The position numbers and the translations under genes were made by a program. A DNA stretch of 20,534 nt from a virus (Duplodnaviria > Heunggongvirae > Uroviricota > Caudoviricetes), in the IMG/VR virus record IMGVR_UViG_2718218127_000002, positions 1-20,534 of that record; one strand, given 5' to 3'. Below are positions 935 to 19,390 of the stretch, piece after piece (within the stretch, counting starts at the first letter, position 1; each line of letters begins with the position of its first letter). A model generated the notes under the pieces. The model saw only the letters and a program-made list of their open reading frames with translations. It did no database searches and had not been told where the DNA came from.

Positions 935-2620
935 GTGAATATAAACGTCGCCGAATTGTTAAATGGGAATTACATTCTGTTATTATTTGTGGTCCTCGCG
1001 CTTGGGCTATGTCTCGGAAAGTTACGACTTGGTTCGATCCAACTGGGTAATTCCATTGGCGTTTTAGTCGTATCGCTGTTATTAGGCCAACAACATTTCA
1101 GCATTAACACCGATGCGCTTAATCTTGGCTTTATGCTGTTTATTTTCTGCGTCGGGGTCGAAGCCGGACCGAACTTTTTTTCCATTTTTTTTCGCGATGG
1201 GAAAAATTACCTAATGTTAGCACTGGTGATGGTTGGCAGTGCGCTGGTGATCGCCTTAGGGTTAGGTAAGCTGTTTGGCTGGGATATTGGCCTGACGGCC
1301 GGTATGTTAGCAGGCTCTATGACGTCGACACCGGTTCTGGTCGGTGCTGGCGATACACTGCGTCATTCCGGCATGGAAAGCAGGCAGCTCTCACTGGCAC
1401 TGGATAATCTGAGCCTCGGGTATGCCTTAACCTATTTAATCGGTCTGGTGAGTTTGATTGTTGGTGCGCGTTACTTGCCGAAATTGCAGCATCAGGACTT
1501 ACAGACCAGCGCCCAGCAAATCGCCCGCGAACGTGGCCTGGACACTGATGCCAACCGTAAGGTTTATTTACCGGTGATCCGCGCCTATCGCGTCGGCCCG
1601 GAACTGGTGGCCTGGACCGACGGCAAAAATCTGCGTGAACTGGGTATTTATCGACAAACCGGCTGCTACATTGAACGTATTCGACGTAACGGGATTCTGG
1701 CAAATCCAGACGGTGATGCCGTGCTACAAATGGGCGATGAAATAGCGTTGGTAGGCTATCCCGACGCCCATGCCCGACTCGATCCCAGCTTCCGTAACGG
1801 TAAAGAAGTTTTCGATCGTGACCTTCTCGACATGCGTATCGTCACTGAAGAAGTGGTCGTTAAAAACCATAACGCTGTAGGTAAACGTCTCGCACAACTG
1901 AAGTTGACCGATCACGGTTGCTTCCTTAACCGCGTCATTCGTAGCCAGATTGAGATGCCGATAGATGACAACGTCGTGCTTAACAAAGGTGACGTTTTAC
2001 AAGTCAGCGGCGATGCCCGCCGCGTAAAAACCATCGCCGATCGCATCGGCTTTATCTCGATTCACAGCCAGGTCACTGACCTGCTGGCATTCTGCGCCTT
2101 CTTTGTTATTGGGCTGATGATCGGGATGATCACCTTCCAGTTCAGCACATTCAGTTTCGGCATGGGGAACGCTGCCGGGTTGTTATTCGCCGGAATTATG
2201 CTGGGCTTTATGCGTGCTAACCACCCGACCTTCGGTTACATTCCGCAGGGTGCATTAAGCATGGTGAAAGAGTTCGGCTTGATGGTGTTTATGGCAGGCG
2301 TTGGTCTGAGCGCCGGTAGCGGTATTAATAACGGCCTGGGCGCGATTGGCGGTCAGATGTTGATTGCCGGATTGATTGTCAGTCTGGTGCCCGTGGTTAT
2401 CTGTTTCTTGTTCGGTGCTTATGTATTGCGAATGAACCGCGCGCTGTTGTTCGGCGCAATGATGGGCGCACGTACCTGCGCGCCGGCAATGGAGATCATC
2501 AGTGATACAGCTCGCAGTAACATCCCGGCGCTGGGCTATGCGGGCACCTATGCAATCGCCAACGTCCTGCTGACGCTGGCAGGGACAATCATCGTCATGG
2601 TATGGCCAGGATTAGGATAA
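935..2620 (+). CDS. ybjL: Putative AAE-family transport protein YbjL
   Basis: 561-aa ORF with GTG start (gtg aat ata aac = M N I N); hydrophobic N- and C-terminal transporter halves flanking central soluble repeated domains; sequence and size match my memory of YbjL. Confidence 0.88.
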
Positions 2621-3164: not shown

Positions 3165-4265
3165 TCATTCCATTTCGAAATCATCAATCCTCACTTCAAG
3201 CTCCAGACTGGTCGTAAAACCGTTATCCGGGCTGACGGTATGTGTCAGAGTCGTAATGGTCCATTCCGCATCATCTATCGGCTGTTTAAAGCCACTGACC
3301 TTCACGGGCATTTCCGTGTAGAGATCTGCCCGCCCTTCCGCCAGTTGTAGCGAGAATGACGCAACGCCGCGTTGCAGGCGTTCCCACTGCATTTTCGCCG
3401 CTCGTTCGGCGTTGCTCCGGTTGGCATAAGTGCGATTAAGTACCAGCACGTTTTCATCCGTACCCACCAGGTAATCGCCCTGCTTCGCTTCCGGCTCTTT
3501 CTTCTGCTTCTTAGTCCTGCGCTTACGCTTCACCGTGGTGCTTTCTTTCTTCGCGGGTTCGCGGGTATGCAACCAACTGGCAATTACGCCCGTATAGGCT
3601 CCGCGATCTGCCAGGGTAAAGCGGTGACTGTCGCCGTCCTTACGTGTGATAGTGATCACCGGTAGTGGTTTACCGCTGGCGCTTTTACCCTGTCCCTGCC
3701 GGATGAATAACAGATTGCCATTTTTCACCGACGCAATAGCACCGTACTGGCGCGCCAGCCGCATCAGAAAACTGCCGTCACTCTCATTGGTCTGGTCTAT
3801 ATGTTCCACGGGTTTATCTGACAGGTCTTTACCCAGTGCCATCTTCAGTTTGTGCCGCACAGCTATTTCCTTCACCACTTCCCCGACAGTGGTCTTGTGC
3901 CACGACTTTTCACGGCGGGTATTCAGCGTTTCCCGAAAATCAGCACTTCGCGCCCGGATAGTCAGGCGGTCCGGTGCGCCAGTGTGTTCAATCTCGTCCA
4001 CCGTGAATGCCCCTTTCGGGAAAAGCGGCTGCCCCTTCCAGCCCAGCGCCAGCGTAATGACCGCACCACGGCGCGGCAGCGCTATTTTTCCATCGGCGTC
4101 GTCCAGCTCCAGATCAAGCTGGTCCGCTTCAAAGCCCCGATTATCCGTCAGCGTCAGACTCATCAGGCGGTTATCCAGCACAGTGGTGATATCCCTGCCC
4201 TCAATACTGATGCTGAATGCGGGAGTTTTGTTGCCTTTGTTAAGCAGTTCAGAGCTGAAATTCAC
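3165..4265 (-). CDS. D: P2 gpD-like tail protein (late control gene D)
   Basis: 366-aa ORF immediately upstream of ogr and downstream of U, size and position as P2 D; GTG start directly after U stop; lysine-rich segment KRKRRTKKQKKEPE typical of this family. Confidence 0.8.
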   Translation of the reverse strand: MNFSSELLNKGNKTPAFSISIEGRDITTVLDNRLMSLTLTDNRGFEADQLDLELDDADGKIALPRRGAVITLALGWKGQPLFPKGAFTVDEIEHTGAPDRLTIRARSADFRETLNTRREKSWHKTTVGEVVKEIAVRHKLKMALGKDLSDKPVEHIDQTNESDGSFLMRLARQYGAIASVKNGNLLFIRQGQGKSASGKPLPVITITRKDGDSHRFTLADRGAYTGVIASWLHTREPAKKESTTVKRKRRTKKQKKEPEAKQGDYLVGTDENVLVLNRTYANRSNAERAAKMQWERLQRGVASFSLQLAEGRADLYTEMPVKVSGFKQPIDDAEWTITTLTHTVSPDNGFTTSLELEVRIDDFEME

Positions 4266-4747
4266 GACAGCAGCCCTCCCACCGTTTTACTGATATCGCT
4301 TAAGGCAGACGTTGCCGTGTCCTGCAGATTATTCAGTTGCGCACTGAGATCACCGAACATATCGGACAATGATTCATCCACCCTTTTGAGCGACAGGGTG
4401 AACTCAATCCGGCGCGGCATACCGTCGCGGAAAAACTCCGTTTTAGTCTGATTCAGTCCCTCAATCACATACATGCCATAAATCGTGCCGCTGCCTTCAA
4501 TCAGGGGCCATGCTTTCCCCTGTTCTGCCATCTGCTCCAGTGCCAGCAACGACAGCCTGCCACCTGTTATCTCCGGCATAAGAACACCGGAAAGCGTCAG
4601 CATGTCGTTGTCCGGTCCCAGAAACTGCGTGGACGGACGTCGGTTTACCCGGCTGTTTGCCGCATGTCGCCAGCTGCGTTGATACTGCAGCTCCTGATAC
4701 GGCACGGTGCGCAGCATAAACACGTACAATCCCAGCACCATCATCAT
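4262..4747 (-). CDS. U: P2 gpU-like tail protein
   Basis: 161-aa ORF between T and D, ATGA start/stop overlap with T; size and position as P2 U. Confidence 0.8.
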   Translation of the reverse strand: MMMVLGLYVFMLRTVPYQELQYQRSWRHAANSRVNRRPSTQFLGPDNDMLTLSGVLMPEITGGRLSLLALEQMAEQGKAWPLIEGSGTIYGMYVIEGLNQTKTEFFRDGMPRRIEFTLSLKRVDESLSDMFGDLSAQLNNLQDTATSALSDISKTVGGLLS

Positions 4748-7700
4748 GCGTCGTATCCCCCCTGATCGCTGTAGTTACTCCTGGCTTTTGCCTTCAGCCT
4801 GCGTTCACGTTCATCAAGCTGGCGGGCCACCTCCCGCGCAATATCCTGCGCACTTTGTCCTGGCTGCGTCTGAATGATGATCTGCATCGGTGCCTCAATC
4901 CGTTGAACGGGCGGCACAGTGGCTGCACGACTCACCATCGCTTCGCCGCCTTTCGCGGGAAGTGCCAAAGGGTGCAACGGTGGAAGCTCTGCAGGCGCGG
5001 CAGCAACGCCCATCATTCCGGCAACAACGGCAGCCAGTGCAGCTGTATTTCTCCGGCTGGTCACATTTGCCGGGCCGTTAACAATTTCCGGCCCGTTTTC
5101 ACCGACGATGCCAAACTGCCCGCGCGGGATATAGCCGCCGCTGTCATACATCCCCGCAAAGCCATATCCCCATGATGGAAAACCACCCGATGGCATCATC
5201 ACTTTACCGTCTGCATTCACCGTCGCAGGTTGCTGACGCGTCACGCTTTCCGGCAGTTTTGCCTTTGCGGCCTCTTTACTGACAATGCCGAGCTTCTCCA
5301 GCAACCAGGAAACGCCGGATTTCAGGGAGTCCAGCGGATGCATGACCATATTCAGCCCTTCCGCCAGTGCCTCCCCGAATCGCCGCCCCATTGCCGCTGC
5401 GCTCTGCAGTTCGGCAGAGGTCGACTTAACGGGCGTCAGCAGATCAGTAAACCAGCCCCACAGCGCCTGCACTTTGTCGCCAATCCACTGGAACACGGGC
5501 TTAAGCGGTTCGAACGCTGCACTGATGGGACCTGCCGCCGCTTTGAATCCTTCCACCACGCCACCGAGAAATGCGGTGATGGGTTGCCAGTATTTCCAGA
5601 CAACCAGCGCCACGCCCGCCAGTGCAGTAACCACAAGACCTATCGGACTGAGCAGAGCACCTAACAGACCAGATATGGCATACAGGGCAACGCGCAGCAT
5701 CGCCAGTGGACCAGATGCCAGTACTCGCAGCACCGTGCCTGCGGCGGCCAGTCCACCGCGCAGTACCGCCAGAGGATTCATAAACATCACAGCAACAGCA
5801 CGTAAACCGGATAATCCAGACCGCAAAAGTGCAACCGGCGCACCTGCTACAGTTTTCAGGACATTTCCCGTCAGTGATGCCGTGCGGCGCAAAGACGACA
5901 ACGGCGCAGTAAGTAAACCTGCGGCGTTGCCCGATGAAGCAAGCCCGCGTCGCAGCAGTGCCAGTGGTGCGCCAGCCAGCCAGGACAACGCGCTGCTGGT
6001 TCGAGTTACTGCTGCCGTAACGGAAGATAACGTTTTGATACCCAACACAGAGAATCCCAGACGGATCACTGCCAGCGGCCCCAGCACTGCAGCCAGCGCC
6101 ACCGCTAAGGTGCCGAGGCCGACGGTAACCGCAGCCACAACAGCCGATGCTTTCATCAGTGTGCCTGTCAGTTCCGGGTTAGCTTCCACCCAGCGGCGCA
6201 ACGCTCCCGTGATGCTTTTCACCGTGTACAGAATATCCATCAGCGGCTGGCGCAGCGTTTCGCCCAGGCTGCTGAAGGTGTTCTGCGCTCCGGTTTTGAC
6301 CAGCAACCACTGCGCAGAAAGTGAATCCTTGTTAATGTCGGATTCTTTCTGCATGGAGCCAAGCGCATCATTGCCCGCTGTCAGTTTTAACTGACGCTGC
6401 AGTTCCGGCAGGTTGTTTGCCAGTTTCGCCGCGTCATCGCCAAACTCTTTACCAAACAACATAGTCATGGCAGACAGGCGCTTGTCCTGCGGCAGCGCGT
6501 TTACCTTCTCCAGCACGCGCTGGATGGTTCCCATCGCATCCTTCGTCATCTGCTTTTCAATCACTTCAGGATTGAGTTTCAGCAGATTCATCCCTTCAAA
6601 GAAACTCTTGCTTTGCATGGTGGCAATGGACAATTCACGCACCATCGCGTTTGCTGCACTGGCTGCAACCTCTGGCGCAGCGCCCAGTGTCAGGAAGGTG
6701 GAACCCAGCGCCGCCGCTTTACGATAATCCAGACGGTCAGCCACACCGCCCAGACGTTGCATCACATCAATGATGTCTGCCCCTTTCGACATGGCGTTAT
6801 CATCCAGATAGTTCAGCGCATCACCGAGCTGTTCAATATTGCGGGTGGGGATTTTGTAGAGCTGGGCGATTTTCCCCAGACTTTCTGACAGTTCATCCGC
6901 TGGCAGCTCAAAGGCTGTTGCCGCCTTTGCTGCCGTACTGGCGAAGGCCAGCAGGTCACGTTTCTGATCTTCCCAGCTGTCGTCAGGGTTTGCGACGTTC
7001 ATGCGCGCACCACCTTCAACCAGTGCAGCGAAGTCCACCGCACCGTTTTCCATCGGCAACTGTTCGCTGGCAGCCTTGATGGCATCCTGCATTTCATAAA
7101 AACGTGCAGTGCGGTTGCCATTATCGTCACGCAGACCATTGACCTGCTTTGCCACACCTTTCATGGCATCTTCCATGCTGGTATAGCTTTTTACTGCCGC
7201 CATCACTGGCGCACCCATTGCCAGCCCTGCAGCCGTGGTGGTGGCTCCGGCACCTGCAATACGATCACGCACCTCCAGCGAACGGGCATAACTGGCACGC
7301 GCTGCATTCATCCTGCGCTGAGCTTCCCCCAGTCGCTTCAGCCGCGCCTCCTGTTTCGAAAGTTCCTGGTTATAACGTGATGTTTCACGGGCTAAACGGG
7401 CAGTTGCTCCCGCATCGTCTTTCGCAGAAATTCCCGCCCGGTACAGTTCAGCACGCACAAGCGCCGTCTGCTGCTGCAGCTTTTTCTGGCGTTCTTCCAG
7501 GCGCTGAACAGCCAGCCGTTGACGGCCCAGAGCAACAACCTGACGTTGCGAAGGCGGCCCCATCGCTCCCAGTTCCTGACTGAGCAAATTTGCACGCTGG
7601 CGGGCATAGTTCAGCCTGTCGCCTAATTTCTGATTTTCTGCCTGCAGCTTTCGGAAGCTGTCCAGACTGCTCCCGGCCTGATCAAGCTGCTTTATTGCAT

Positions 7701-7821
7701 CGCGGGATTTTTTGACAGCAGCAGCCAGTTCTCTTGAACTGGCCTGCGCAGATCGAAATGGGCGGGTGAGCTTGTCAACCGCATTAAGAATGACCTGCAG
7801 ACGCAGGTTGTTATCACTCAT
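4744..7821 (-). CDS. T: Tail tape-measure protein (P2 gpT-like)
   Basis: 1025-aa ORF; N-terminal coiled-coil-like region rich in Q/R/A/L, central hydrophobic Ala/Leu/Gly-rich repeat block, position upstream of U and D; ATG start at 7821. Confidence 0.85.
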   Translation of the reverse strand: MSDNNLRLQVILNAVDKLTRPFRSAQASSRELAAAVKKSRDAIKQLDQAGSSLDSFRKLQAENQKLGDRLNYARQRANLLSQELGAMGPPSQRQVVALGRQRLAVQRLEERQKKLQQQTALVRAELYRAGISAKDDAGATARLARETSRYNQELSKQEARLKRLGEAQRRMNAARASYARSLEVRDRIAGAGATTTAAGLAMGAPVMAAVKSYTSMEDAMKGVAKQVNGLRDDNGNRTARFYEMQDAIKAASEQLPMENGAVDFAALVEGGARMNVANPDDSWEDQKRDLLAFASTAAKAATAFELPADELSESLGKIAQLYKIPTRNIEQLGDALNYLDDNAMSKGADIIDVMQRLGGVADRLDYRKAAALGSTFLTLGAAPEVAASAANAMVRELSIATMQSKSFFEGMNLLKLNPEVIEKQMTKDAMGTIQRVLEKVNALPQDKRLSAMTMLFGKEFGDDAAKLANNLPELQRQLKLTAGNDALGSMQKESDINKDSLSAQWLLVKTGAQNTFSSLGETLRQPLMDILYTVKSITGALRRWVEANPELTGTLMKASAVVAAVTVGLGTLAVALAAVLGPLAVIRLGFSVLGIKTLSSVTAAVTRTSSALSWLAGAPLALLRRGLASSGNAAGLLTAPLSSLRRTASLTGNVLKTVAGAPVALLRSGLSGLRAVAVMFMNPLAVLRGGLAAAGTVLRVLASGPLAMLRVALYAISGLLGALLSPIGLVVTALAGVALVVWKYWQPITAFLGGVVEGFKAAAGPISAAFEPLKPVFQWIGDKVQALWGWFTDLLTPVKSTSAELQSAAAMGRRFGEALAEGLNMVMHPLDSLKSGVSWLLEKLGIVSKEAAKAKLPESVTRQQPATVNADGKVMMPSGGFPSWGYGFAGMYDSGGYIPRGQFGIVGENGPEIVNGPANVTSRRNTAALAAVVAGMMGVAAAPAELPPLHPLALPAKGGEAMVSRAATVPPVQRIEAPMQIIIQTQPGQSAQDIAREVARQLDERERRLKAKARSNYSDQGGYDA

Positions 7822-7879
7822 CGTTGGCCCCGCTTCTCTGAATCGCTTTATACCGCCATTCCAGCACTTCGGTCAGGCG

Positions 7880-8497
7880 TGCATGGTGGACAGCTGGGAA
7901 GTCTGGACCGACTTTCATGCACTGGCCCTGCGCCCGTTTGGCTGGCGCGAAGTATGGATCGGTTATGACCCCGCAAAAGGTACTCAGAACGGCGACAGTG
8001 CCGGATGCGTGGTGGTGGCACCGCCAGCCGTACCGGGCGGTAAATTCCGCATTCTTGAGCGTCACCAGTGGCGCGGGATGGACTTCCGCGCTCAGGCTGA
8101 CGCCATCAAAAAACTGACCGAACAGTACAACGTGACTTATATCGGTATCGACTCAACCGGCGTTGGTCACGGGGTTTACGAGAACGTGAAAGCATTCTTT
8201 CCTGCCGTCCGGGAGTTTGTCTACAACCCCAACGTTAAAAACGCCCTGGTGCTCAAGGCCTACGACATTATCAGCCACCGCCGTCTGGAGTTTGACGCCG
8301 GACACACCGACATTGCGCAGTCATTCATGGCAATCCGTCGCGCCACCACCGCCAGCGGCAACCGCCCGACCTATGAAGCCAGCCGCAGCGAAGAAGCCAG
8401 CCATGCCGATCTGGCCTGGGCAACAATGCACGCACTGTTTAACGAACCGCTGCAAGGCGAGTCCGCCAATACCAGCAATATTGTGGAGATTTTTTGA
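7880..8497 (+). pseudogene. P: 5'-truncated terminase large (ATPase/nuclease) subunit gene, P2 gpP-like, C-terminal nuclease domain only
   Basis: Open frame encodes only about 200-260 aa with RNaseH-like nuclease-domain acidic motifs (WIGYDPAKG, YIGIDSTGVG, SHADLAWA) and an ATGA overlap with the Q start, as in P2 P-Q; the N-terminal ATPase domain is absent and the frame runs into the divergent T gene start. The 5' boundary is approximate. Confidence 0.7.
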
Positions 8498-9522
8498 TGG
8501 GAAAGAGTAAGAAGAACCGCGCTGCGGCGACGAAACAGATCCAGCTTAAAAGTCAAACTACAGCCGAAGCATTCAGCTTCGGCGATCCCGTTCCTGTTCT
8601 GGACCGCCGAGAACTGCTGGACTATGTGGAATGCGTACAGACAGATCGCTGGTATGAGCCGCCAGTAAGCTTTGACGGACTGGCGCGCACCTTCCGCGCC
8701 GCCGTGCATCACAGTTCACCAATTGCGGTGAAATGCAACATTCTGACCAGTACCTACATCCCTCACCCGCTGCTCAGCCAGCAGGCTTTTTCACGTTTTG
8801 TGCAGGACTATCTGGTATTTGGTAACGCCTACCTGGAGAAACGCACGAACCGCTTCGGTGAAGTTATCGCCCTTGAGCCTGCTCTGGCAAAATACACCCG
8901 ACGCGGGTTAGACCTGGATACCTACTGGTTTGTGCAATACGGTATGACAACCCAGCCGTATCAGTTCACGAAAGGCAGCATTTTTCATCTGATGGAACCG
9001 GACATTAACCAGGAGATCTACGGCCTGCCCGGCTATCTTTCTGCCATTCCGTCCGCCCTGCTCAATGAGTCCGCCACGCTGTTCCGCCGCAAGTATTACA
9101 TTAACGGTAGTCATGCAGGCTTCATCATGTACATGACCGATGCTGCGCAGAACCAGGAGGACGTGAACAACCTCCGCAATGCAATGAAAAGTGCCAAAGG
9201 TCCGGGTAACTTCCGCAACCTGTTTATGTACTCGCCTAACGGCAAAAAGGACGGGCTTCAGATTATCCCGTTGTCAGAGGTGGCGGCGAAGGATGAGTTT
9301 TTGAATATCAAGAACGTGAGCCGCGATGACATGATGGCTGCGCACCGCGTGCCGCCGCAAATGATGGGGATTATGCCTAATAATGTTGGAGGGTTTGGGG
9401 ATGTGGAGAAGGCCGCAAATGTGTTTGTGCGCAATGAACTTTTGCCATTACAGAAACGCATGGAGGAGTTAAACCATTGGCTGGGTGAGAAAGTTATTGC
9501 ATTTTCATCCTATTGTTTATGA
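8497..9522 (+). CDS. Q: Portal protein (P2 gpQ-like)
   Basis: 341 aa from ATG at 8497 (GGAG 8 nt upstream, overlaps P stop); size and position match P2 Q downstream of P. Confidence 0.8.
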   Translation: MGKSKKNRAAATKQIQLKSQTTAEAFSFGDPVPVLDRRELLDYVECVQTDRWYEPPVSFDGLARTFRAAVHHSSPIAVKCNILTSTYIPHPLLSQQAFSRFVQDYLVFGNAYLEKRTNRFGEVIALEPALAKYTRRGLDLDTYWFVQYGMTTQPYQFTKGSIFHLMEPDINQEIYGLPGYLSAIPSALLNESATLFRRKYYINGSHAGFIMYMTDAAQNQEDVNNLRNAMKSAKGPGNFRNLFMYSPNGKKDGLQIIPLSEVAAKDEFLNIKNVSRDDMMAAHRVPPQMMGIMPNNVGGFGDVEKAANVFVRNELLPLQKRMEELNHWLGEKVIAFSSYCL

Positions 9523-9531
9523 GATATAAAT

Positions 9532-9573
9532 TGGTGGCCTTAATTATATAGCCACCATATTGCTTTTTATTTT
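9532..9573. terminator. Putative terminator between convergent Q and TIR gene
   Basis: tggtggc / gccacca inverted repeat with AT-rich loop followed by tattgctttttatttt on the + strand. Confidence 0.4.
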
Positions 9574-10379
9574 ACTCTAAAGGCATCATCGGCTTTATGT
9601 GGTATAGGAGCATAACGCTCGGTACTTACTCGATGTAGCACCGCAAATATATTCAAAGGTGAACCATCCTTTAACCTAAGAGAAACATACATTGGCATCG
9701 TTGGTGTTAACCCCCGATTTAGGCCAACAGTGGCACCACTTACTTTCATACCATTTTCTAAAGATGCATTTTCAATAAACCCCTGAGTGAATGTGCTTTC
9801 TCCATTGACCATAACAACAACATCATCATGCTTAATTGTATTATCCATAATCATCATAAAATCAGCAATTGGTTCTAAAAAATCCATTGCTGATAATTTC
9901 ACTATCTTACCCCCATCACCATCCTTAATATCATAGGAGAGGTTTGAATACTTCTCAGGATTAGGAATATACGTATTTTGTTGATTAATGACATCTATAA
10001 TTTGTCTTATTGCCACATCGATCCCATACGAATAAAGATCAATATATAGCGTTTGAGTAAGCAGAGCAGGCAAGGATATATTCTGGCAACGTATTGGTAT
10101 AAATTTACACTTCCCGGACGATGCCTTAATTAAAGCATTTTGCCATTCCATTTTTACCATGTTACTTGCCAAACTATTTTCTGTGACAAAAAAGAAAAAG
10201 AACGATACATTCTCCATTCCTAAATTCATCTTGTCAATAATACCCTCTCCGGGTTGGATAGACCAAGAATCGTAGAATACGTTATCACGCCCATAAACAT
10301 CTGCTAGTTTTTCCGCTATAACACTTACAAACCTTTTGTCACGGTGATTATGACTTAGAAAGATCATAGCATGCCCCAT
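9567..10379 (-). CDS. TIR-domain protein with uncharacterised C-terminal domain (candidate defence protein)
   Basis: N-terminal 140 aa show the bacterial TIR pattern: IFLSHNHRDKRFV (betaA/alphaA), NVFYDSWSIQPGEGI, VSFFFFFVTENSLASNMVKMEWQNAL (hydrophobic strand, then Ser-x5-Glu where the catalytic Glu is expected). Start is either ATG 10379 or ATG 10367. AT-rich relative to the phage backbone. Confidence 0.6.
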   Translation of the reverse strand: MGHAMIFLSHNHRDKRFVSVIAEKLADVYGRDNVFYDSWSIQPGEGIIDKMNLGMENVSFFFFFVTENSLASNMVKMEWQNALIKASSGKCKFIPIRCQNISLPALLTQTLYIDLYSYGIDVAIRQIIDVINQQNTYIPNPEKYSNLSYDIKDGDGGKIVKLSAMDFLEPIADFMMIMDNTIKHDDVVVMVNGESTFTQGFIENASLENGMKVSGATVGLNRGLTPTMPMYVSLRLKDGSPLNIFAVLHRVSTERYAPIPHKADDAFRVK

Positions 10380-10448
10380 TAGAAATTAATGTGTAAGATC
10401 TGCGTAGAGAGTCACCGACAGTGTACCAATAATAATCTTCTGCGCGCA

Positions 10449-10467
10449 ATCGTATCCCCGCCACGCC
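10449..10467 (-). other. cos-like cohesive-end sequence (putative packaging site remnant)
   Basis: Minus-strand sequence GGCGTGGCGGGGATACGAT; the first 13 nt are identical to the 19-nt cohesive end I recall for phage 186 (GGCGTGGCGGGGAAAGCAT; P2 GGCGAGGCGGGGAAAGCAC), 16/19 overall; lies in a GC-richer segment between two AT-rich genes. Confidence 0.45.
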
Positions 10468-10667
10468 TGCCCACTTTATGTAGTGGTTTTCATGCACCTG
10501 CATGACATAAGCAAAAGCACGCCAGTTCTGGCTGGCATCAGCGAAAACGATCGTCATACTATCATGCGATCTCATGCGCCATATGAAGTTTTCCTGACAC
10601 AGCCTTGGGTTGGGATAACACCTAACTCAGGAAGATTTTTTGTGTGTTTGTAACCCACACCTAGAGT

Positions 10668-11837
10668 TTACCAATCCATGTTTGCGGCATTATCCATCTC
10701 ACGAGTTAAGTAATTAACAAATAAGTCCATATTCCTTTCTGATTTCATCGCCTCCGCATAGGTTCCATTAGTTACGTAAGATAGTATTAAAGGACATCCA
10801 GATTCAATATAAATTTTTGCTGGGGACAGTTCTCCCTGCCACAAATTTTCAAGAAAATCGTTAATTAATTGCATTGCTTCAGGTGCCAAAAAATGCACAC
10901 CATTTCCAAACTTGAAACGTTCTTTATTTTCTCGATGAGGCAGCAATAGTGGCACAGCCCCTACACTTGAGTGAAATTCCAATGCTTGCCCATCCTTACC
11001 GAAGGCGCCATGGGCTACAAAATTACGCACCTGTTTTCTGAGTATAAGTAAACGATCATAGAACAATTTTAGACTGGAAGAGTTAATATCAATGGCTAAT
11101 TTGAATTTCTCCCCCCATTCTTTTCCAACTTTATCAGCCACATCATTCCCATTTTTTATCTCACCCTTCAAGATTGCAATAAGAATGAAAACATGCTCGG
11201 TCCAATTGAAAAATGACTCAATTGCAGACGTTGCTAACCACATAGCCTCTCTTCGGAGTTCAATTATCTTATTTGATTGTTCAAAAGTGGATTGTAACAG
11301 GCTGAAAAAATTATCAGACTTAAACTCACTATCAACTTCCAGTTTAGACTCTTGGCCAGCAGCAACTTCATCAAGCTTCTGTTTATATAGCTCTAAAAAA
11401 TAGCAAAACCTATCATAAAGAGAATTAGCATTGTTATTAACATTTAGATTTGAAGTCTTTGCTGCATTGTCTGCAAGCGAGTCAAAAAAATTCGTAGCAG
11501 CTTTAACCCCTGCGCAAATATGTCTCAAAACAGTTTTAGCTTGCTCTATATCATCATCACTCTTGATAAATATATCTAAACCAAGTTTACGATGTTCTAT
11601 AATTACGACAGTCCCATCAATCCGGACTGGGATAGAAAAAGAAATCTTCTCATCAACCCCACGATTTTTAAATTTCAGTAAATCTACCAAAAGAAAATAA
11701 ACGAGATAATACGGAGGTAATGAGTCTCCCAAACCCGAGCGCTTACCCCAAAAATATTCATCAAGCTCGGCAGACTCCATTGTCCCTATGACTCTTCGGA
11801 CGCGTTCTTCAACTTTAGCCAGATCCATTCCCCACAC
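10668..11837 (-). CDS. Hypothetical protein with HEPN-like R-N-x3-H motif (candidate abortive-infection/defence effector)
   Basis: 389-aa AT-rich ORF; motif RNFVAH at residues 271-276 (nt 11010-11027) fits the Rx4-6H HEPN signature with polar residue after Arg; no Walker A, SIR2 or other motif recognised by eye. Start is either GTG 11837 or ATG 11828. Confidence 0.45.
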   Translation of the reverse strand: MWGMDLAKVEERVRRVIGTMESAELDEYFWGKRSGLGDSLPPYYLVYFLLVDLLKFKNRGVDEKISFSIPVRIDGTVVIIEHRKLGLDIFIKSDDDIEQAKTVLRHICAGVKAATNFFDSLADNAAKTSNLNVNNNANSLYDRFCYFLELYKQKLDEVAAGQESKLEVDSEFKSDNFFSLLQSTFEQSNKIIELRREAMWLATSAIESFFNWTEHVFILIAILKGEIKNGNDVADKVGKEWGEKFKLAIDINSSSLKLFYDRLLILRKQVRNFVAHGAFGKDGQALEFHSSVGAVPLLLPHRENKERFKFGNGVHFLAPEAMQLINDFLENLWQGELSPAKIYIESGCPLILSYVTNGTYAEAMKSERNMDLFVNYLTREMDNAANMDW

Positions 11838-11998
11838 CGCCTTTCAATATCACTTAAGGTATTACAGCCAATGACATCGATTAAATACAGCGTAGATAAT
11901 AGGCAACTTGCTACTGTTTTCAAGGGCTTTCTGTTTCAATCCTTAGTTGACCTTGCTGACGCGAGAATCTAGTTCTCACGCCAGCAACGCCCCTGCTG

Positions 11999-12187
11999 CT
12001 AACCGAGAAGATCCATTACACGGTTATATTCATGGGCACGAATTTTCGCCATCAACTCATCAGTCAGCTCTGAAACCCACTGCAGAGCCAGCCCCTTCTC
12101 TTCATCACTACACTCACTAGCCGCTACAAGCTTAAGAAAAAAATCAATGCGCTGGAGCTTCAAAGACTCCAAAAAATAGTCCTGCAT
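11999..12187 (-). CDS. Small hypothetical protein (62 aa)
   Basis: ATG at 12187 preceded by a strong SD (taGGAGGaaaaATG); the longer 96-aa track ORF has no SD. Located immediately downstream of A, in the position of P2 orf91. Confidence 0.5.
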   Translation of the reverse strand: MQDYFLESLKLQRIDFFLKLVAASECSDEEKGLALQWVSELTDELMAKIRAHEYNRVMDLLG

Positions 12188-12340
12188 TTTTCCTCCTATG
12201 ACACCACAAGCAATACTGTATGCATAACCACTGTTTATATTTACAGTATATAATAATCTTACTGATGTAAAACGTTTTTTTACGTTCATCAGCCTGATAT
12301 GCCTGGTATTATTAAGAGCACGAATTGTTAATCCGCGTAA

Positions 12341-14755
12341 TTAATACAGGTTCCGCCACTTATCATCTTCCCACAAACGCTGGTTCCGATAGAAGATACG
12401 CAAGCCTGCTCCTGACGGAATACTGCCGCCGCGAAGGAGTAAATCGACCTCTTTCTCGCTGCCATCAAATCCTCTGGACTTCAGCTCATAGACGAGCTGC
12501 AGTCGCTGATGGTCTGTAATTCGCTGTTTGTAGTCTTTACGCCGTTTCGGTTTAACCAAGCGTAACCTTGCTGCCAGTTCCCGGCGCTCTTTTTTGCTCA
12601 TACTGTGCAGGTAATCGTGCAACTCCTTGTCATCCATGCGGGTAATGTCCGTTCTGGTGTCCCCATCAGCTGATTTATCTTTCTCCTGTTGGTTCAAATT
12701 TTCAGCAAGGGGACAGTTATTGCCACGAGTCCAAGGGGCGCAAGCGCCCTGGTCGGCTGCCGCCTCCTGAACATCAACGGCCTTACGAACCATTTTCCAC
12801 TTCACGGCATGAGTGCAGATCTTGCCCTCTGCAATAGGTGACCAGATGCCATAAATACGAATGCCGTGATCGCCATAGGCGGTCGGCTCTTCGTTGATTT
12901 CATAAGCGGTTCTGATGAGGTGATATTTGCGGGGAACCAGTACGCCGCCCTGCTTCATGATGTAGGTGGCAAAACAACCAGCATCAGCAGCAGCCAGGAT
13001 GGCATCAAGGCGTGGGTTATCCAGTACCGGCGCACCTGCTTTTTTGTCCCCCTGTTGCCTTGCCGCCTGACCAGCCAGCAATCGCAGTTCACGGTAAGCC
13101 TGACGCCCCGGAATGCCAAAGAAGCGGAATTGCTGAACACGATGCAGAGACGCCCAGGCATTAACGTATTCAGCATTATCACGCAGGGATTTCCCCGTTT
13201 CCTTGCTGATCTCGCCAGCCAGACCACGCCCGTCAATGTTCTTACTGATGTATTTCGCGATGTAGCTTGTTGGCGTTCCTTTGCGCGGGTTAATCAACTC
13301 AGACTTAAAGCGCGGCCCAGTGTTATTGCCCAGCTCCTCGCGGTCTTCACGGATGGCAAACTTACGCAGTAATGCAGTGATGGCACGGCGGTCTTTTTTG
13401 CGCATGAAACACAACAGGTGCCAGTGAACTGTGCCGTCATGATGCGGCTCAGCCACCCGCACGCCATACCAGCGCAACCCGGCTTTGTGCATCGCCTTAC
13501 GAAATGCAGCAAACATGCCGACCAGATAATCGCTGCTTTGTCTTACCGTCGCGTTTGTCCAGGTCGGGTTTGGTCTGCCGTTATTGAGCGTGGAATGGAA
13601 ACGTGACGGACAGGTGATGGTGTAGAAAACGGCGCAGTCACCGCGCATTTCCGCGATAAGCTCCAGACCTTTAACACAGGCCATCATCTCATTGCGGCGA
13701 TGCGCCGGGTTGCTGCTGCTGGCGTTTACCACATCCTCCATGTCCAGCGTGTCGCCGTCTTCGTTCACCAGTTCATGAGAACGGAAAAACTCCAGCGACT
13801 TACGGCGCTGCTCACGTTTATGCATCACGGCTTCATAGCTGACATAGGGAGATGCTTTTTTGCTGACCAGGCAGACAGCACGCAACTGCTCTTCCCGCCA
13901 TTCGCAACGCATCTTCCATAATTTCCGATACCACCAGTCGGCGCACAACATACGCGCCAGCGAACCCGGAATGAGTTCATAGGGCACGGGTTTACGGCGG
14001 TTTCTTTTCCGACGGAGTTGCTCAAACGCAGGAGGGATTACATCCAGACGCAGGGTTTCCGCTGCCACCTTTTCCCATGTCTTGCGGATTTCTTCTGGCT
14101 TAACGTCATCGGTGGCATACAAATCACCACAAGCTGCATCAAGGCACATGCTCATATGCGCGGCAACAAGGGTAGACAGGCGCTTCACCTGATCCTGACT
14201 CATTTCAGGCAGGATCAGCAGGCCGTCCAGCCCTTCATGGCTTGCCATAAAGCGAAAAGAAGTGGATAGCTGACTCTCGCGTACATGCTCCAGTCGTTCC
14301 AGACATGGCTTAATCGTCTCACGCAAATAGCGGGAATAAGCCTTTGGCCTGCCCAGGCTGCTGAAGTATTCAATACGTTGCATCAGCGGCTTGCTGATAT
14401 GGGAAGGCTGGGCGTTGACGTCCGCCAGAATGACCATATCCGGATTAAAACGCTGCTGCTCATGCGCCAGCTTTGCCCGACTAATGAGCTTATCCTGCTC
14501 GATTTCGCGCTGGACAGGATCACGGGATTCATTAAAGAAATAACGCTCCCAGACCTGATCACTCAGCGCCTCACGGCGCAGCTGTTCCTGCTCGTTATCG
14601 GCAGCGTACAGAGTGATCAGGTTTGAAAGCGCAGAAACCGGCGCAACTTCCGCCGGGTCCAGATAAGGGTTAATGGCCTTTTTCGGGCTGCTCCATGAGA
14701 ATGCTGCTGCGACCTCGTTAAAGCCGCTGCAGTTGTTCATATCAGCATGGCTCAT
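12341..14755 (-). CDS. A: Replication initiation endonuclease (P2 gpA-like rolling-circle initiator)
   Basis: 804-aa ORF with HUH-type motif (HWHLLCF) and downstream tyrosine motif ([12 protein letters not shown]) characteristic of P2 A-type nicking proteins; ATGA overlap with the upstream methyltransferase gene. Confidence 0.82.
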
Positions 14756-15609
14756 GCACGCACTCCGTACACGGCAGAACTATCCACGCCACGCGAAGGA
14801 TCAAATCCCACCCAGCAGCGCGGCCCGGAAACAGCGATGATTTCTGTTGCTGATTTACACTCGCCAGCTGCCACACCGATGCTGCGTTTTACCTTGATAT
14901 AGTGGTGAGTAAAATTGCGATACAGCGAACGAATCAGGGATGTGTCACTGTTAGAAACAATGACCGGATGTCCTTCAGATGATCGATGTTCAAGAACGGA
15001 TGCCAGGTGATACTGGTCATCTTCAGTGAAACCATCAGTGTGATAGCCGGAAAACGTACCGTCATAAGGCGGATCGCAATACACCACATCCCCCGCCTTC
15101 AACATCGCCAGCGTTTCATCAAAGCTGGCGCAGATAAACGTTGCCCGCTGGGCTTTTTCTGCAAATGCGCGAATTTCTTTTTCAGGGAAATACGGATTTT
15201 TATAATTCCCGTAGGGAATGTTGAAATGTCCGCTCTTGTTATAACGACATAACCCACGGTAACCGTGACGATTGAGATACAGGAAATATACTGCTTTCAT
15301 GAAATCAGTAATTTCAGATGAGTAATTAAACTCCTGCCTTATGTTGTAATAAGCCACCTCCCTGTTTGCTTCCTCAAATAAGACTCTGGCACGAGATATA
15401 AATGATTCGCAATCAGCGGCAATCTTTTTATAGAGGTTGATTAAATCAGGATTAATATCAGCAACCAGATAGCTGGGGTAATCCGTCGCCATCATCACAG
15501 CACAGGAACCCGCGAAAGGTTCAACCAGTCGCGGGCCAGCAGGAAGGTGTTTTTTCAGTTCGGACATAATGGCGGTTTTATTACCCGCCCATTTCAGGAT
15601 GGTGCTCAT
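14752..15609 (-). CDS. Dam-like DNA N6-adenine methyltransferase
   Basis: Motif I FAGSCAV and catalytic motif IV DPPY ([10 protein letters not shown]); start assigned to ATG 15609 with GGAGGTG SD ([11 protein letters not shown]), typical Dam N-terminus; stop overlaps the A start. Confidence 0.8.
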
Positions 15610-15833
15610 ACAGCACCTCCGTTGTAATGTTTGCCTTTCAGCTCTGCGATTTCCTGGCAGGTAATGCAAAGCTGCACTCCCGGAATGGCGCGGCGTCGTG
15701 CTGGCGGAATTGGCGCTTCACATTCAATACAAAGCACGCGAGACACGCCCGGTGTTTTGGCACGGGCAGCACGAATATGGCGCTGGCGTTCTTCTTCAAC
15801 GCGCTGCTGTACGAGATCCATTGCATCAGCCAT
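15606..15833 (-). CDS. TraR/DksA-family C4 zinc-finger protein
   Basis: 75 aa with CIECEAPIP...x17...CITCQ four-cysteine pattern; overlaps the methyltransferase start by 4 nt. Confidence 0.65.
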   Translation of the reverse strand: MADAMDLVQQRVEEERQRHIRAARAKTPGVSRVLCIECEAPIPPARRRAIPGVQLCITCQEIAELKGKHYNGGAV

Positions 15834-16646: not shown

Positions 16647-17156
16647 TCACAGCAAACCGAATGAAGCACCGAGGCCAGTCACGGTATCAACTGCATTCGC
16701 CATCGCAGGATTAGCCTGTAAACGGGCCTGCAATGAAACAGCGGCCAGCGCCATCAGTCGTGTTACAGAGTTAATGCTGCTGATAGCATCACGACGACCT
16801 GCACTGGTTTTTACATCGCCAGATACCGCACCTGCAGCAACACGCCCGATCTCTGCGGTTGCACTCATGACGTAATGCGGTAGTTTCTCTTTTGCCACCT
16901 CATTAATCGGAACACATGGCAGACAATGAATCTGTGCCAGAAAACCATCTACCAGCGTTGAATCTTCAGTCAGATCGGTAAGCAACCAAATTTCTGGTGC
17001 GGTTAATAAATGAGGTTGAGCTGGGTTCAGTTTGTTCCGCAGAATCTGCACATTCATGCCTGCACGTTCTGCCAGTTGCACCAGATTGTGGCGCAGTGCG
17101 AATGCACGACAGGCTTCATCAAAATGTGGATGTTTGGAAACTTGGTAATCAAACAT
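16647..17156 (-). CDS. P2 gpB-like protein (replication gene B; assignment by position and size)
   Basis: 169 aa from ATG 17156 with GAGGTG SD (MFDYQVSK...); first gene downstream of cox as in P2. Confidence 0.5.
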
Positions 17157-17188
17157 GGTCGACACCTCTGATGTATCCCAAAATGGAA

Positions 17189-17410
17189 CTAGTTGAATAC
17201 AACATTGCAATCAGTAAGTGCATCAACGGTAAGAGCAGCAAGGTTGATCATTACCTTTTCTCTTTTCTTGTCTTTCCGAAGGCGATGCCGAGGGATGCGA
17301 CCGTCAGCCAGCATATCGTTAATTGTGTCGATTGAAAGACCAGTAAGTTCGCTATAACGCTCAATTGTGACATGTGGCGTATTCAGGGTTATTGAAATGT
17401 TAGGGGTCAT
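17189..17410 (-). CDS. cox: Cox-like excisionase/early regulator
   Basis: 73-aa basic protein divergent from the repressor gene; [28 protein letters not shown] resembles the DNA-binding region of phage Cox-family proteins; AGGAGA SD. Confidence 0.6.
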
Positions 17411-17498
17411 GATGCAACATCTCCTATTGGCTTGTGGTGAGTCAGTTTTAATCGTGGCTTTAACTTCACATTTCGGAGAATGGGATCACAAATCGGTT
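17411..17498. promoter_or_regulatory. Lysis/lysogeny switch region (divergent cox and repressor starts, presumed operators)
   Basis: Intergenic region between divergently oriented cox and repressor genes; contains the 10-bp sequence tcacatttcg (17466-17475) repeated at 17515-17524. Confidence 0.45.
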
Positions 17499-18434
17499 AT
17501 GTCAACACATGAAATCACATTTCGCCATGTGGACGAAAAAAAGAAATCCTTAATCATGCAGAATCGCGGAGGGCAATCGGTTATAGATCGGATACTGAAA
17601 GCCTATGGTTTTTCTTCCCGACAAGCATTCTGTAATCACCTAGGTATATCGCAAAGTACAATGGCGAACAGGTATGCCCGTGACACTTTCCCTGCTGATT
17701 GGGTTGTTATCTGTAGCATGGAGACTGGAGTGCCGGTCGAGTGGTTGGCATTTGGCACTGATACCGAGAAGGGAAGCATTACAAATAATGCAGAAAAAAG
17801 TCACAACAATTGTGACAGCAAGCATCAACATCTCAATAGAGAACAAGACATCCAAAATGAGAACTCTTTTACTATTAACCAAGGTGGAAAAGCAGCAATA
17901 GAGCGAATCGTTTTGGCTTATGGATTTAAGACAAGACAAGCTTTAGCTGATCATATTGGTGTATCAAAAAGTACATTAGCCAATCGTTACATGAGAGATA
18001 CCTTTCCTGCTGACTGGATTATTCAATGCTCACTGGAAACCGGTGCTTCATTAACATGGCTAACCACTGGTAACGGGGCAATGTTTGAAAAGCCTCGAAA
18101 CGATACTATCACTATCCCATATCATAAAATAATTGATGGATCTCTTGCTCAAGAAACCTTCTTGACTTTTGACTCTAAGTTGTTAGAAGGAACCTTTCTG
18201 CAACCTTTAGCAGTATTCATTGATGAGGAAATATATATTGTAGAATCAAAATTTAATGAAGTTACTGATGGCAAGTGGCTTGTGAATATTGAAGGGAAAA
18301 TAAGTATCAAAGATTTGACTCGCATACCCGTTGGTATGGTTAAAGTTGTAGGCACTAACGCAAGTTTTGAATGCTTACTTACTGACATTATCGTTTTGGC
18401 AAAATGTAAAAGAGTTTTTACTAAAAATGTATAA
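17499..18434 (+). CDS. Immunity repressor with tandemly duplicated CI-type (phage 186 CI-like) N-terminal DNA-binding domain
   Basis: Two about 63-aa internal repeats (residues encoded at 17568-17756 and 17883-18074) share the pattern GG-x-IxRI-AYGF-RQA-HxG-S-ST-ANRY-RDTFPADW-CS-ETG-WL; divergent from cox. The region upstream of ATG 17499 in the track ORF looks non-coding. Confidence 0.6.
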   Translation: MSTHEITFRHVDEKKKSLIMQNRGGQSVIDRILKAYGFSSRQAFCNHLGISQSTMANRYARDTFPADWVVICSMETGVPVEWLAFGTDTEKGSITNNAEKSHNNCDSKHQHLNREQDIQNENSFTINQGGKAAIERIVLAYGFKTRQALADHIGVSKSTLANRYMRDTFPADWIIQCSLETGASLTWLTTGNGAMFEKPRNDTITIPYHKIIDGSLAQETFLTFDSKLLEGTFLQPLAVFIDEEIYIVESKFNEVTDGKWLVNIEGKISIKDLTRIPVGMVKVVGTNASFECLLTDIIVLAKCKRVFTKNV

Positions 18435-18445
18435 AGAGAAACATC

Positions 18446-19390
18446 ATGACTGAACCAACCAATAAAGATAGCGAAATAAAAAAACACCTATTAGAATTTC
18501 TTGATTCACAGTCTGAAAATATAGCAAAACACTTCTACTCTCATATAAAAGACTTAATAGAAGCAGGAGAGCTTTCTGAAGCTCATAATAACCTAGCGCT
18601 AATTGAAAAATACATAACTAGGCCACCGATGGATGAAGAACCCAATATAAATGAAAATAAAGCCAATAAAAGAAAAAATGTAAAATCACTTGAACCTAAT
18701 AATTATGTAGAACATATAATACAATTAGAAGAACGAAACAGCATATTAACTCTACAGTTAGAGCATTATACTCAGGATCTTAATAGAAAAAACGCAATAA
18801 TCGAAAACAACGTAAAACAAATTAATTCATTGATTAGTGAAAATAAGGAACTCCGTAGCCAAGTACAGCAACAAAGAATCGATGATAAAATCCCCACCTA
18901 TGTTAACGATGTTAAATCAGATCTTGGTAGTGATGACAAACATTTTATATTGATGTCTATTATCTGGTCTATTGCAGGGGTATTTTTTGGCTTCCTTGCA
19001 GTAGTATCTGCTTTTTTTACATTATACATGAACTTAGATTTAAAAAATCTCACTAACCTTCAGTTAATATATATCTTCACGCGAGGATTAGTTGGAATCG
19101 CCATTCTTTCATGGCTATCATATATCTGCCTTAGTAACTCAAAAAAGTACACACATGAATCGATCAGGCGAAAAGATCGTCGACATGCTTTGATGTTTGG
19201 TCAAGTTTTTTTGCAGATATACGGTTCTACAGCAACTAAAGAGGATGCAATAGAAGTCTTTAAGGATTGGAATATTTCAGGTGACTCTGCATTTTCAGGT
19301 CAGACAGAGCAACCACCGAGTTTTGCGTCATTTTTGAATACAATCAAAGACAAAGTTAAAGTAACTGGAAGTGATAAAGAAACAGATTAA
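18446..19390 (+). CDS. Hypothetical coiled-coil protein with two predicted transmembrane helices
   Basis: 314-aa AT-rich ORF 11 nt downstream of the repressor gene; heptad-like N-terminal region and two hydrophobic stretches (ILMSIIWSIAGVFFGFLAVVSAFF and GLVGIAILSWLSYICL). Confidence 0.65.
   Translation: MTEPTNKDSEIKKHLLEFLDSQSENIAKHFYSHIKDLIEAGELSEAHNNLALIEKYITRPPMDEEPNINENKANKRKNVKSLEPNNYVEHIIQLEERNSILTLQLEHYTQDLNRKNAIIENNVKQINSLISENKELRSQVQQQRIDDKIPTYVNDVKSDLGSDDKHFILMSIIWSIAGVFFGFLAVVSAFFTLYMNLDLKNLTNLQLIYIFTRGLVGIAILSWLSYICLSNSKKYTHESIRRKDRRHALMFGQVFLQIYGSTATKEDAIEVFKDWNISGDSAFSGQTEQPPSFASFLNTIKDKVKVTGSDKETD

Follow-up and report, generated by a model that had tools for sequence, protein, structure and literature searches.

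Positions 10442-10593 of the analyzed DNA, a stretch of 20,534 nt from a virus record (hereafter the window), are very probably the cos site of a P2-like prophage of the Fels-2/186 type, a site that divides the gpA-gpQ hotspot into two bays, with the TIR gene in one bay and the HEPN-like gene in the other being separate cassettes. The site was identified as cos because the whole core is homologous to that of P2-type sites, and because of its position between A and Q and its orientation. The surrounding element is a P2-like (Peduoviridae) prophage next to ybjL and has the gene order of the integrated state. Its features, with the source of the assignment in brackets, are as follows.

935-2620, plus strand: host ybjL-like transporter gene (Pfam)
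3165-4265, minus strand: gpD gene (Pfam)
4262-4747, minus strand: gpU gene (Pfam)
4744-7821, minus strand: tape measure gene T (Pfam)
within ORF 7814-8065, minus strand: C-terminal remnant of gpE (Pfam)
7874-8497, plus strand: 3' fragment, from about codon 382, of the terminase large-subunit gene P (Terminase_6C only)
8497-9522, plus strand: portal gene Q, the backbone flank of the Q-side bay, convergent with the TIR gene (Pfam Phage_portal; RefSeq annotation, identical relatives)
9505-10441, minus strand: Q-side cargo bay, with the TIR gene and its 5' region (10368-10441)
9567-10379, minus strand: TIR_2 gene (Pfam TIR_2)
10380-10667: the stretch between the two cargo genes on which the earlier note focused
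10442-10593, minus strand: conserved cos block, a backbone island of about 150 bp (BLAST and column conservation)
10449-10467, minus strand: predicted 19-nt cohesive-end sequence (cosN equivalent), GGCGTGGCGGGGATACGAT (homology)
10519-10538, minus strand: terminator-like hairpin and T-run on the A-to-cos strand (consensus scan)
10594-11949, minus strand: A-side cargo bay, with the 389-aa gene, its 3' region and its upstream region
10668-11837, minus strand: 389-aa HEPN-like gene
11999-12187, minus strand: 62-aa backbone gene, the flank of the A-side bay (RefSeq WP_001154428 in L725 and EA7)
12341-14755, minus strand: replication gene A, transcribed towards cos (Pfam Phage_GPA, E 1.3e-127)
14752-15669, minus strand: Dam methylase gene (Pfam)
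16647-17210, minus strand: CII gene (Pfam)
17367-18434, plus strand: CI gene (Pfam)
19467 to the window end, plus strand: integrase gene (Pfam)

Between the CI repressor and integrase genes, a 314-aa ORF (18446-19390, plus strand) had no Pfam match. This position is occupied by different hypothetical genes in 45E and by an IS5-family insertion in EA7, and it may be a further site for accessory genes; minor hotspots close to the integrase have been mentioned (PMC13586616).

DNA homology to intact relatives starts at position 7874, which corresponds to nucleotide 1143 of P in strain 45E. At the 7873/7874 junction, the gpE C-terminal remnant abuts the last approximately 208 codons of P, and the tape-measure gene lies further left; the remnant and the start of homology together indicate a loss from within E to the middle of P. 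The genes for the tail sheath and tube, baseplate, fiber, lysis, capsid, and small terminase were deleted. The element therefore lacks a cognate terminase (gpM plus gpP), since gpM, gpN, gpO, and the ATPase half of gpP are missing, and it cannot cut its own cos or fill capsids; the orphaned cos could be used by a helper phage only. The remaining element of approximately 18 kb retains cos, A, CI/CII, and the integrase, and might be packaged by a helper phage. The cognate terminase is present in the intact relatives EA7, 45E, and SOI121, and the EA7 and 45E prophages have full P, Q, O, N, and M genes with a cos block identical to that of the window.

The plus-strand sequence atcgtatccccgccacgcc at 10449-10467 reads GGCGTGGCGGGGATACGAT on the minus strand. 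The record of phage 186 (NC_001317) carries GGCGTGGCGGGGAAAGCAT at positions 1-19, annotated as 'cos; cohesive end', and the cosL of P2 (NC_001895) is GGCGAGGCGGGGAAAGCAC. The window 19-mer was identical to the annotated 186 cos at 16 of 19 positions, including all of the first 13; bases 14, 16, and 17, i.e., three of the last six, differed. It shared 14 of 19 positions with P2 and P4 and 18 of 19 with the 'putative cos site' of SEN8, and it has the form of the 19-nt cohesive ends of the P2 family, GGCG(A/T)GGCGGGGA followed by six nucleotides. The earlier note had stated that the first 13 nt of this minus-strand 19-mer match the 186 cohesive end and that P2 departs from it at position 5; NC_001317 agrees exactly with the former statement and the cosL of NC_001895 with the latter.

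The 13-mer GGCGWGGCGGGGA matches the window exactly at one place only (10455-10467, minus strand), compared with a calculated chance expectation of about 6e-4 exact 13-mers in 2 x 20,534 positions. A search across the window for a second cos candidate revealed three other matches to the 13-mer, each with two mismatches, and none better; no rival with fewer than two mismatches in 13 thus lies elsewhere in the window, where the earlier note had allowed for a better candidate. Cos position 19 and the base after it (window positions 10448-10449) vary together: among the sequences listed, the pair was G-C in approximately 90% and T-T in 12 of 128, with G-T as the one exception, and T-T also occurs in 186.

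A BLAST search of 10300-10750 against 50,697 phage records showed that only 10441-10583 matched. The matches were to 79-87 Peduoviridae records at 84-89% identity, with E values down to 1e-46, and included Fels-2, SopEPhi, RE2010, SEN8, and many P2-like phages of Klebsiella, Yersinia, and E. coli. In the annotated examples, the block always lay between Q (or cargo adjoining Q) and DinI or A. The whole region could be aligned with the joined ends of P2, 186, and SEN8, which indicates common ancestry. Within the block, the core consists of TGCATGAAAACC-N-AAAGTGGGCA, followed by the 19-mer and then by TGCGCGC; with P4 added, the 63-nt core reads TGCAT(T/G)AAAACC-N-AAAG(C/T)GGGC(A/G), the 19-mer, and (T/C)GCGCGC. 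Over these 63 nt, the window was identical to SEN8 at 59 positions, to 186 at 52, to P2 at 47, and to P4 at 46, and P2 was identical to 186 at 51; the window therefore resembles 186 over the core as closely as does P2, these being two phages whose cohesive ends are annotated in their records. Of the positions invariant in P2, P4, and 186, the window retains 41/51. A '55-bp core' shared by P2-type cos sites is credited to Ziermann & Calendar 1990 in two papers (PMC5694545, PMC9594776), and the window core, as judged from its sequence, agrees with it.

The position and orientation of the site pointed in the same direction. The site lies between the region downstream of A and the 3' end of Q, the same layout as in 186 and P2, and the strand beginning with GGCG runs towards Q, with Q itself on the opposite strand, as in both phages. 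The ends of deposited records also fell at or near the predicted cut. SEN8 was sequenced from phage DNA (PMC5427200); its record opens with ggcgtggcggggatacgag, annotated as a 'putative cos site' on the basis of homology, and its last base aligns to window position 10468, immediately next to the predicted cut. For the 186-like phage Midge, the linear record as deposited both starts and stops inside the homologous 19-mer. The end of the Cartapus record also falls inside the block; it was dropped as evidence, since the start point of that record seems arbitrary. Together, the results support the identification of the 19-mer as the cos cohesive-end sequence of a P2-like prophage, with the probable cut positions placed by homology. 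Core, position, and orientation all agreed in the comparison with P2, 186, and their relatives by which the earlier note had proposed to check its cos reading, and that reading was supported.

Since the window prophage carries a deletion that runs from gene E into the middle of P, the site might alternatively be a decayed relic of cos in a dying prophage that can no longer be cut. Consistent with decay, most relatives have G rather than T at position 19 and C rather than T at position -7, as well as a different hairpin. However, the intact EA7 and 45E prophages share an identical 165-nt stretch with the window; 186 itself has T at position 19 followed by TGCGCGC, and also has T at -7; and T at both positions 19 and 20 was found in 12 of the 128 listed sequences, beside several different cargos. 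We consider it very unlikely that the site is a relic.

The extent of the cos block was determined from 126 unique sequences, mostly listed IMG/VR loci with the exact 18-mer, plus P2, 186, and SEN8. Column conservation was approximately 35% outside the block and rose to >80-90% inside, with steps at approximately 10593 and 10442. The island is therefore approximately 150 bp long and reaches approximately 8 bp from the 19-mer on the Q side and approximately 126 bp on the A side, an asymmetry read from the conservation profile; the block is conserved in more than 120 P2-like loci. A literature search for the minimal P2 cos region and the side that it requires returned the '55-bp core' statement only.

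The conserved block (10442-10593) has a GC content of 0.507, close to that of Q (0.516) and A (0.535), whereas the coding sequences of the TIR and 389-aa genes have GC contents of 0.365 and 0.378, respectively. The outer stretches have intermediate or low values, 0.355 for 10380-10441 and 0.446 for 10594-10667, and collinearity with relatives showed that the former travels with the TIR cassette and the latter with the 389-aa cassette. The GC-richer island of about 290 bp described in the earlier note is thus borne out in its GC contrast with the cargo genes, but its length had to be reduced to about half.

Three GCATG repeats were found in the block, at -110, -100, and -28 from the cut, compared with approximately 0.15 expected; these are candidate terminase-binding repeats. 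A hairpin followed by a T-run lies at -69 to -50 from the cut, inside the block. In most relatives, the hairpin is GGCCCGCCAGAACTGGCGGGCTTTT (-18.4 kcal/mol), and the window form carries two mismatches (-10.7 kcal/mol). The strong form, GGCCCGCCAGAACTGGCGGGCUUUU (-18.4 kcal/mol), was seen in L001-L003 and most listed IMG/VR loci, and the weakened form (-10.7 kcal/mol) is common to the window, EA7, and 45E. The stem is nearly invariant and for that reason offers no covariation support; the hairpin is a putative terminator, and a terminator may well coexist with cos in the block. An Rfam scan of 10250-10800 (E <= 1) returned zero RNA families.

The occupancy of the regions flanking cos was surveyed in at least 80 IMG/VR loci chosen for the exact 18-mer, a non-random sample with possible near-duplicates, so that the proportions given here are rough. 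Among the 55 listed loci in which the gap between cos and Q was measured, it was <=190 bp in six and >=547 bp in 49, with a median of approximately 1.7 kb and approximately 40 different lengths. On the A side (67 listed loci), the gap was 'empty' (167-221 bp) in 29 and >=469 bp in 38; the nearest backbone gene was the 62-aa gene in 17 of these and DinI in the rest. Both sides were measured in 44 listed loci, of which 23 had cargo on both sides, 17 on the Q side only, three on the A side only, and one on neither. The content of the gpA-gpQ region was highly variable, with 71 Q-side and 42 A-side states among 80 listed loci.

In P2 and 186, the distance from cos to the Q stop codon is 167-176 bp, not approximately 100 bp as the earlier note gave for P2, and the gap holds a terminator only. 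It is occupied by a 1.7-kb gene in Fels-2, a 1.15-kb Hypoth_Ymh gene in vB_EcoM-813R9, and two genes in SEN8. The earlier note had expected insertions between cos and Q to be unusual; this was not confirmed, since this position is occupied in those three phages and in 49 of the 55 listed loci. One paper calls the cosL-Q position a hotspot, citing Dodd & Egan 1996 and Nakayama 1999 (PMC5694545). Rousset et al. 2022 described the cos-proximal gpA-gpQ region as a defense hotspot with 1,650 arrangements in E. coli (PMC9122126), a description since confirmed (PMC13586616), and the 389-aa protein (WP_032248694) appears in their supplementary arrangement table beside three other hypothetical genes (PMC9122126). 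Cargo on both sides of cos is a normal and already described state of this lineage; the site is real but ordinary.

At the edges of the variable region, two further observations were made. Homology to prophages with other Q-side cargo stops 18 bp before the Q stop codon (9505-9522), and the last approximately six portal codons were therefore apparently swapped along with the cargo cassette. The DinI gene, which usually lies between the 62-aa gene and cos, is absent in the window (11950-12340), L725, EA7, and 45E; its place is filled by the 389-aa cassette, and dinI thus behaves as part of the variable A-side bay.

The RefSeq start of the TIR gene corresponds to position 10367. Its product has an N-terminal TIR_2 domain (Pfam, E 1.3e-22) and a C-terminal half without assignment; PADLOC and NCBIfam gave partial TIR-domain matches only, and the ThsB model matched at an E value of only 6.8e-4. 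The RefSeq start of the 389-aa gene corresponds to position 11828, with a promoter-like site upstream at 11923-11896. Searches of Pfam, PADLOC, and NCBIfam with the 389-aa ORF and a 96-aa ORF returned zero matches. The 389-aa family has at least 1,041 members across Proteobacteria, with no Pfam domain recorded for the members listed, and is widespread, its gene standing alone and keeping a constant length in many bacteria. An RNxxxH motif is invariant across the family, which is predicted to adopt a HEPN-like fold, and in the 389-aa protein the Rx4-6H motif lies within a predicted helical bundle, as in HEPN proteins. Residues 278-313 were predicted with a pLDDT below 50 yet contain the invariant residues H289, S290, G293, A294, and P296, which points to a functional loop that is conserved but not placed by the model. 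An equivalence with the 383-aa Hypoth_Ymh protein of 813R9, which lies on the other side of cos, was rejected, since BLASTP found no significant similarity (best E 0.054). Judging from the TIR_2 domain of one protein and the HEPN-like motif and fold of the other, both may have anti-phage activity.

Genome comparison showed that the two cargo genes seldom occur together. Among 5,426 complete E. coli genomes, the TIR gene was found in eight, always at >99% identity, and the 389-aa module in nine; only two (EA7 and 45E) of the 15 genomes with either gene carried both. The pair was also found at IMG/VR locus L106. Each gene was otherwise found, at >99% identity, with unrelated genes across cos: the TIR cassette lies opposite a 336-bp hypothetical gene in SOI121 and a DUF4145 gene in SCU-115, both on the other strand, and the 389-aa gene lies opposite three unrelated genes in L725, one of which has a STAS-like domain. 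The window is collinear with the TIR-only prophages SOI121 and SCU-115 from 7874 to 10583 or 10577 and with the 389-aa-only prophage L725 from 10441 onwards; in a prophage with different Q-side cargo, homology breaks at 9504 and returns at 10441. When the cargo DNA of 80 listed loci was clustered, six of the eight recurrent Q-side types were paired with at least two A-side states, and 10 of the 12 recurrent A-side types with at least two Q-side states. These multiple pairings across cos indicate that the two bays assort independently, and the TIR and HEPN-like genes are accordingly best regarded as separate single-gene defense-type cassettes rather than one system. Of the two origins offered by the earlier note, independent acquisition on either side of cos is favored by the rarity of co-occurrence and the other partners across cos, and an operon existing only in the lysogen is disfavored by the independent assortment and by the terminator-like hairpin between the genes.

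TIR-plus-effector pairs are a known theme of defense systems, Thoeris being one example, and this counts in favor of the alternative that the TIR and HEPN-like proteins form one system, with an operon in circular or integrated DNA read from the 389-aa gene through cos into the TIR gene. The two genes share the minus strand and are separated by 288 bp; a promoter scan revealed no convincing minus-strand sigma-70 promoter between cos and the TIR start (nine sites over 9450-12400, compared with 8.6 expected, a yield no better than chance); the hairpin between the genes is weaker in the window than in most relatives; and the same pair recurs in EA7, 45E, and L106. However, co-occurrence in only two of 15 genomes is not the joint inheritance of a Thoeris-like two-gene system, and each gene is found nearly unchanged beside unrelated genes. 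In SOI121 and SCU-115, the TIR gene must be expressed by itself, since its neighbor beyond cos lies on the opposite strand, and lone genes are common in the 389-aa family. A single two-gene system is therefore highly improbable. It is also scarcely probable that the two proteins, though independently inherited, cooperate once recombination at cos has joined their genes, an arrangement that would operate in circular or prophage DNA only, by read-through past the weakened hairpin.

Hardly any weight can be given to conservation of the block as a small protein gene or only as a terminator or regulatory spacer of the early operon: although a 75-aa ORF (10348-10575) spans the block, some records annotate a small CDS there (e.g., a 144-bp 'hypothetical protein' in MLG42), and the block contains a terminator-like hairpin, the ORF was rejected as a gene because it has no Pfam match and its frame is broken by a stop within the first 50 codons in 84 of the 124 relatives listed, cleavage at cos would split it in two, no gene is annotated there in P2 or 186, no Rfam family matches, and the best-conserved part is the 19-mer with its flanks, which are common to the satellite P4.

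Returning to the reading of the block as cos, we propose that in an intact relative the gpM-gpP terminase would recognize it mostly through the approximately 126 bp on the A side, i.e., through the GCATG repeats and the TGCATGAAAACC...AAAGYGGGCA core. The enzyme would nick the two strands 19 nt apart at GGCGTGGCGGGGATACGAT, at cut positions predicted from homology, to give the linear genome. Virion DNA would start, at its left (Q-side) end, with the 5' G at 10467, approximately 80 bp upstream of the TIR gene, and the right end would lie approximately 200 bp beyond the stop codon of the 389-aa gene. The two genes would accordingly be at opposite ends of the packaged genome, TIR at the left and the 389-aa gene at the right, as the earlier note had anticipated for a cos site. 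Being indispensable in cis, the cos block would persist as a fixed backbone island amid the gpA-gpQ hotspot and divide it into a Q-side bay (9505-10441) and an A-side bay (10594-11949). The contents of the bays would be swapped independently, most simply by homologous recombination, as the breakpoints suggest. The Q-side bay would be anchored by Q and the cos block, and the A-side bay by the cos block together with the 62-aa gene, DinI, or A. That the cos block is a general recombination anchor splitting the hotspot into two independent bays comes close to being shown, with the breakpoints pointing to the anchoring.

The identification fixes the packaging site, and hence the virion genome ends, for this type of E. 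coli prophage, and implies that each of the two AT-rich genes should be analyzed on its own, as a single-gene cargo cassette. In the Fels-2-type lineage, the bays start 8 bp (Q side) and approximately 126 bp (A side) from the cohesive end, and their contents reassort freely. Since the two bays are independent, 'systems' taken from whole gpA-gpQ arrangements may merge unrelated neighbors, and the two-bay layout is relevant to the prediction of multi-gene defense systems from gene neighborhoods at this locus. The cos finding itself does not challenge current understanding.

The cos sites of 186, P2, and P4, like that of the window, have a 19-nt GC-rich end beginning GGCG(A/T)GGCGGGGA and the shared core, and those of 186 and P2 likewise lie between A and the portal gene Q (W in 186) in the same orientation. 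The 186 19-mer ends in AAAGCAT, whereas that of the window ends in ATACGAT, with the differences at bases 14, 16, and 17. The gap between cos and Q in P2 and 186 (167-176 bp) is empty except for the tQ/tW terminator; in the window, it holds a 0.9-kb TIR cassette. SEN8, Fels-2, 813R9, and Yersinia MLG42 (Felsduovirus/Elveevirus types) are 84-89% identical to the window over the 143-bp block, and the first three also carry cargo genes between cos and Q; however, their cargo is different and unrelated, and positions 19 and 20 are G and C in the SEN8/Fels-2 type but T and T in the window.

Foreign genes beside cos have also been described outside this group. One paper cites accessory ORFs lying between cosL and the homologue of Q in phiRSY1, phiRSX, and phiCTX, and the retrons Ec67 and Ec86 as adjoining cos in 186-related prophages (PMC5694545). 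These cases resemble the window in that foreign genes sit immediately next to cos, on its Q side or its A side, and leave phage functions undisturbed; however, they differ from it in hosts and cargo. The gpA-gpQ defense hotspot, which includes old and tin in P2 (PMC9122126), is the same locus, with variable and often defensive content. That study treats gpA-gpQ as one hotspot, whereas in the lineage of the window, cos splits it into two independently assorting bays. The site is thus of a known kind at a known hotspot, and the sole, small addition is the two-bay architecture around an immovable cos block of approximately 150 bp.
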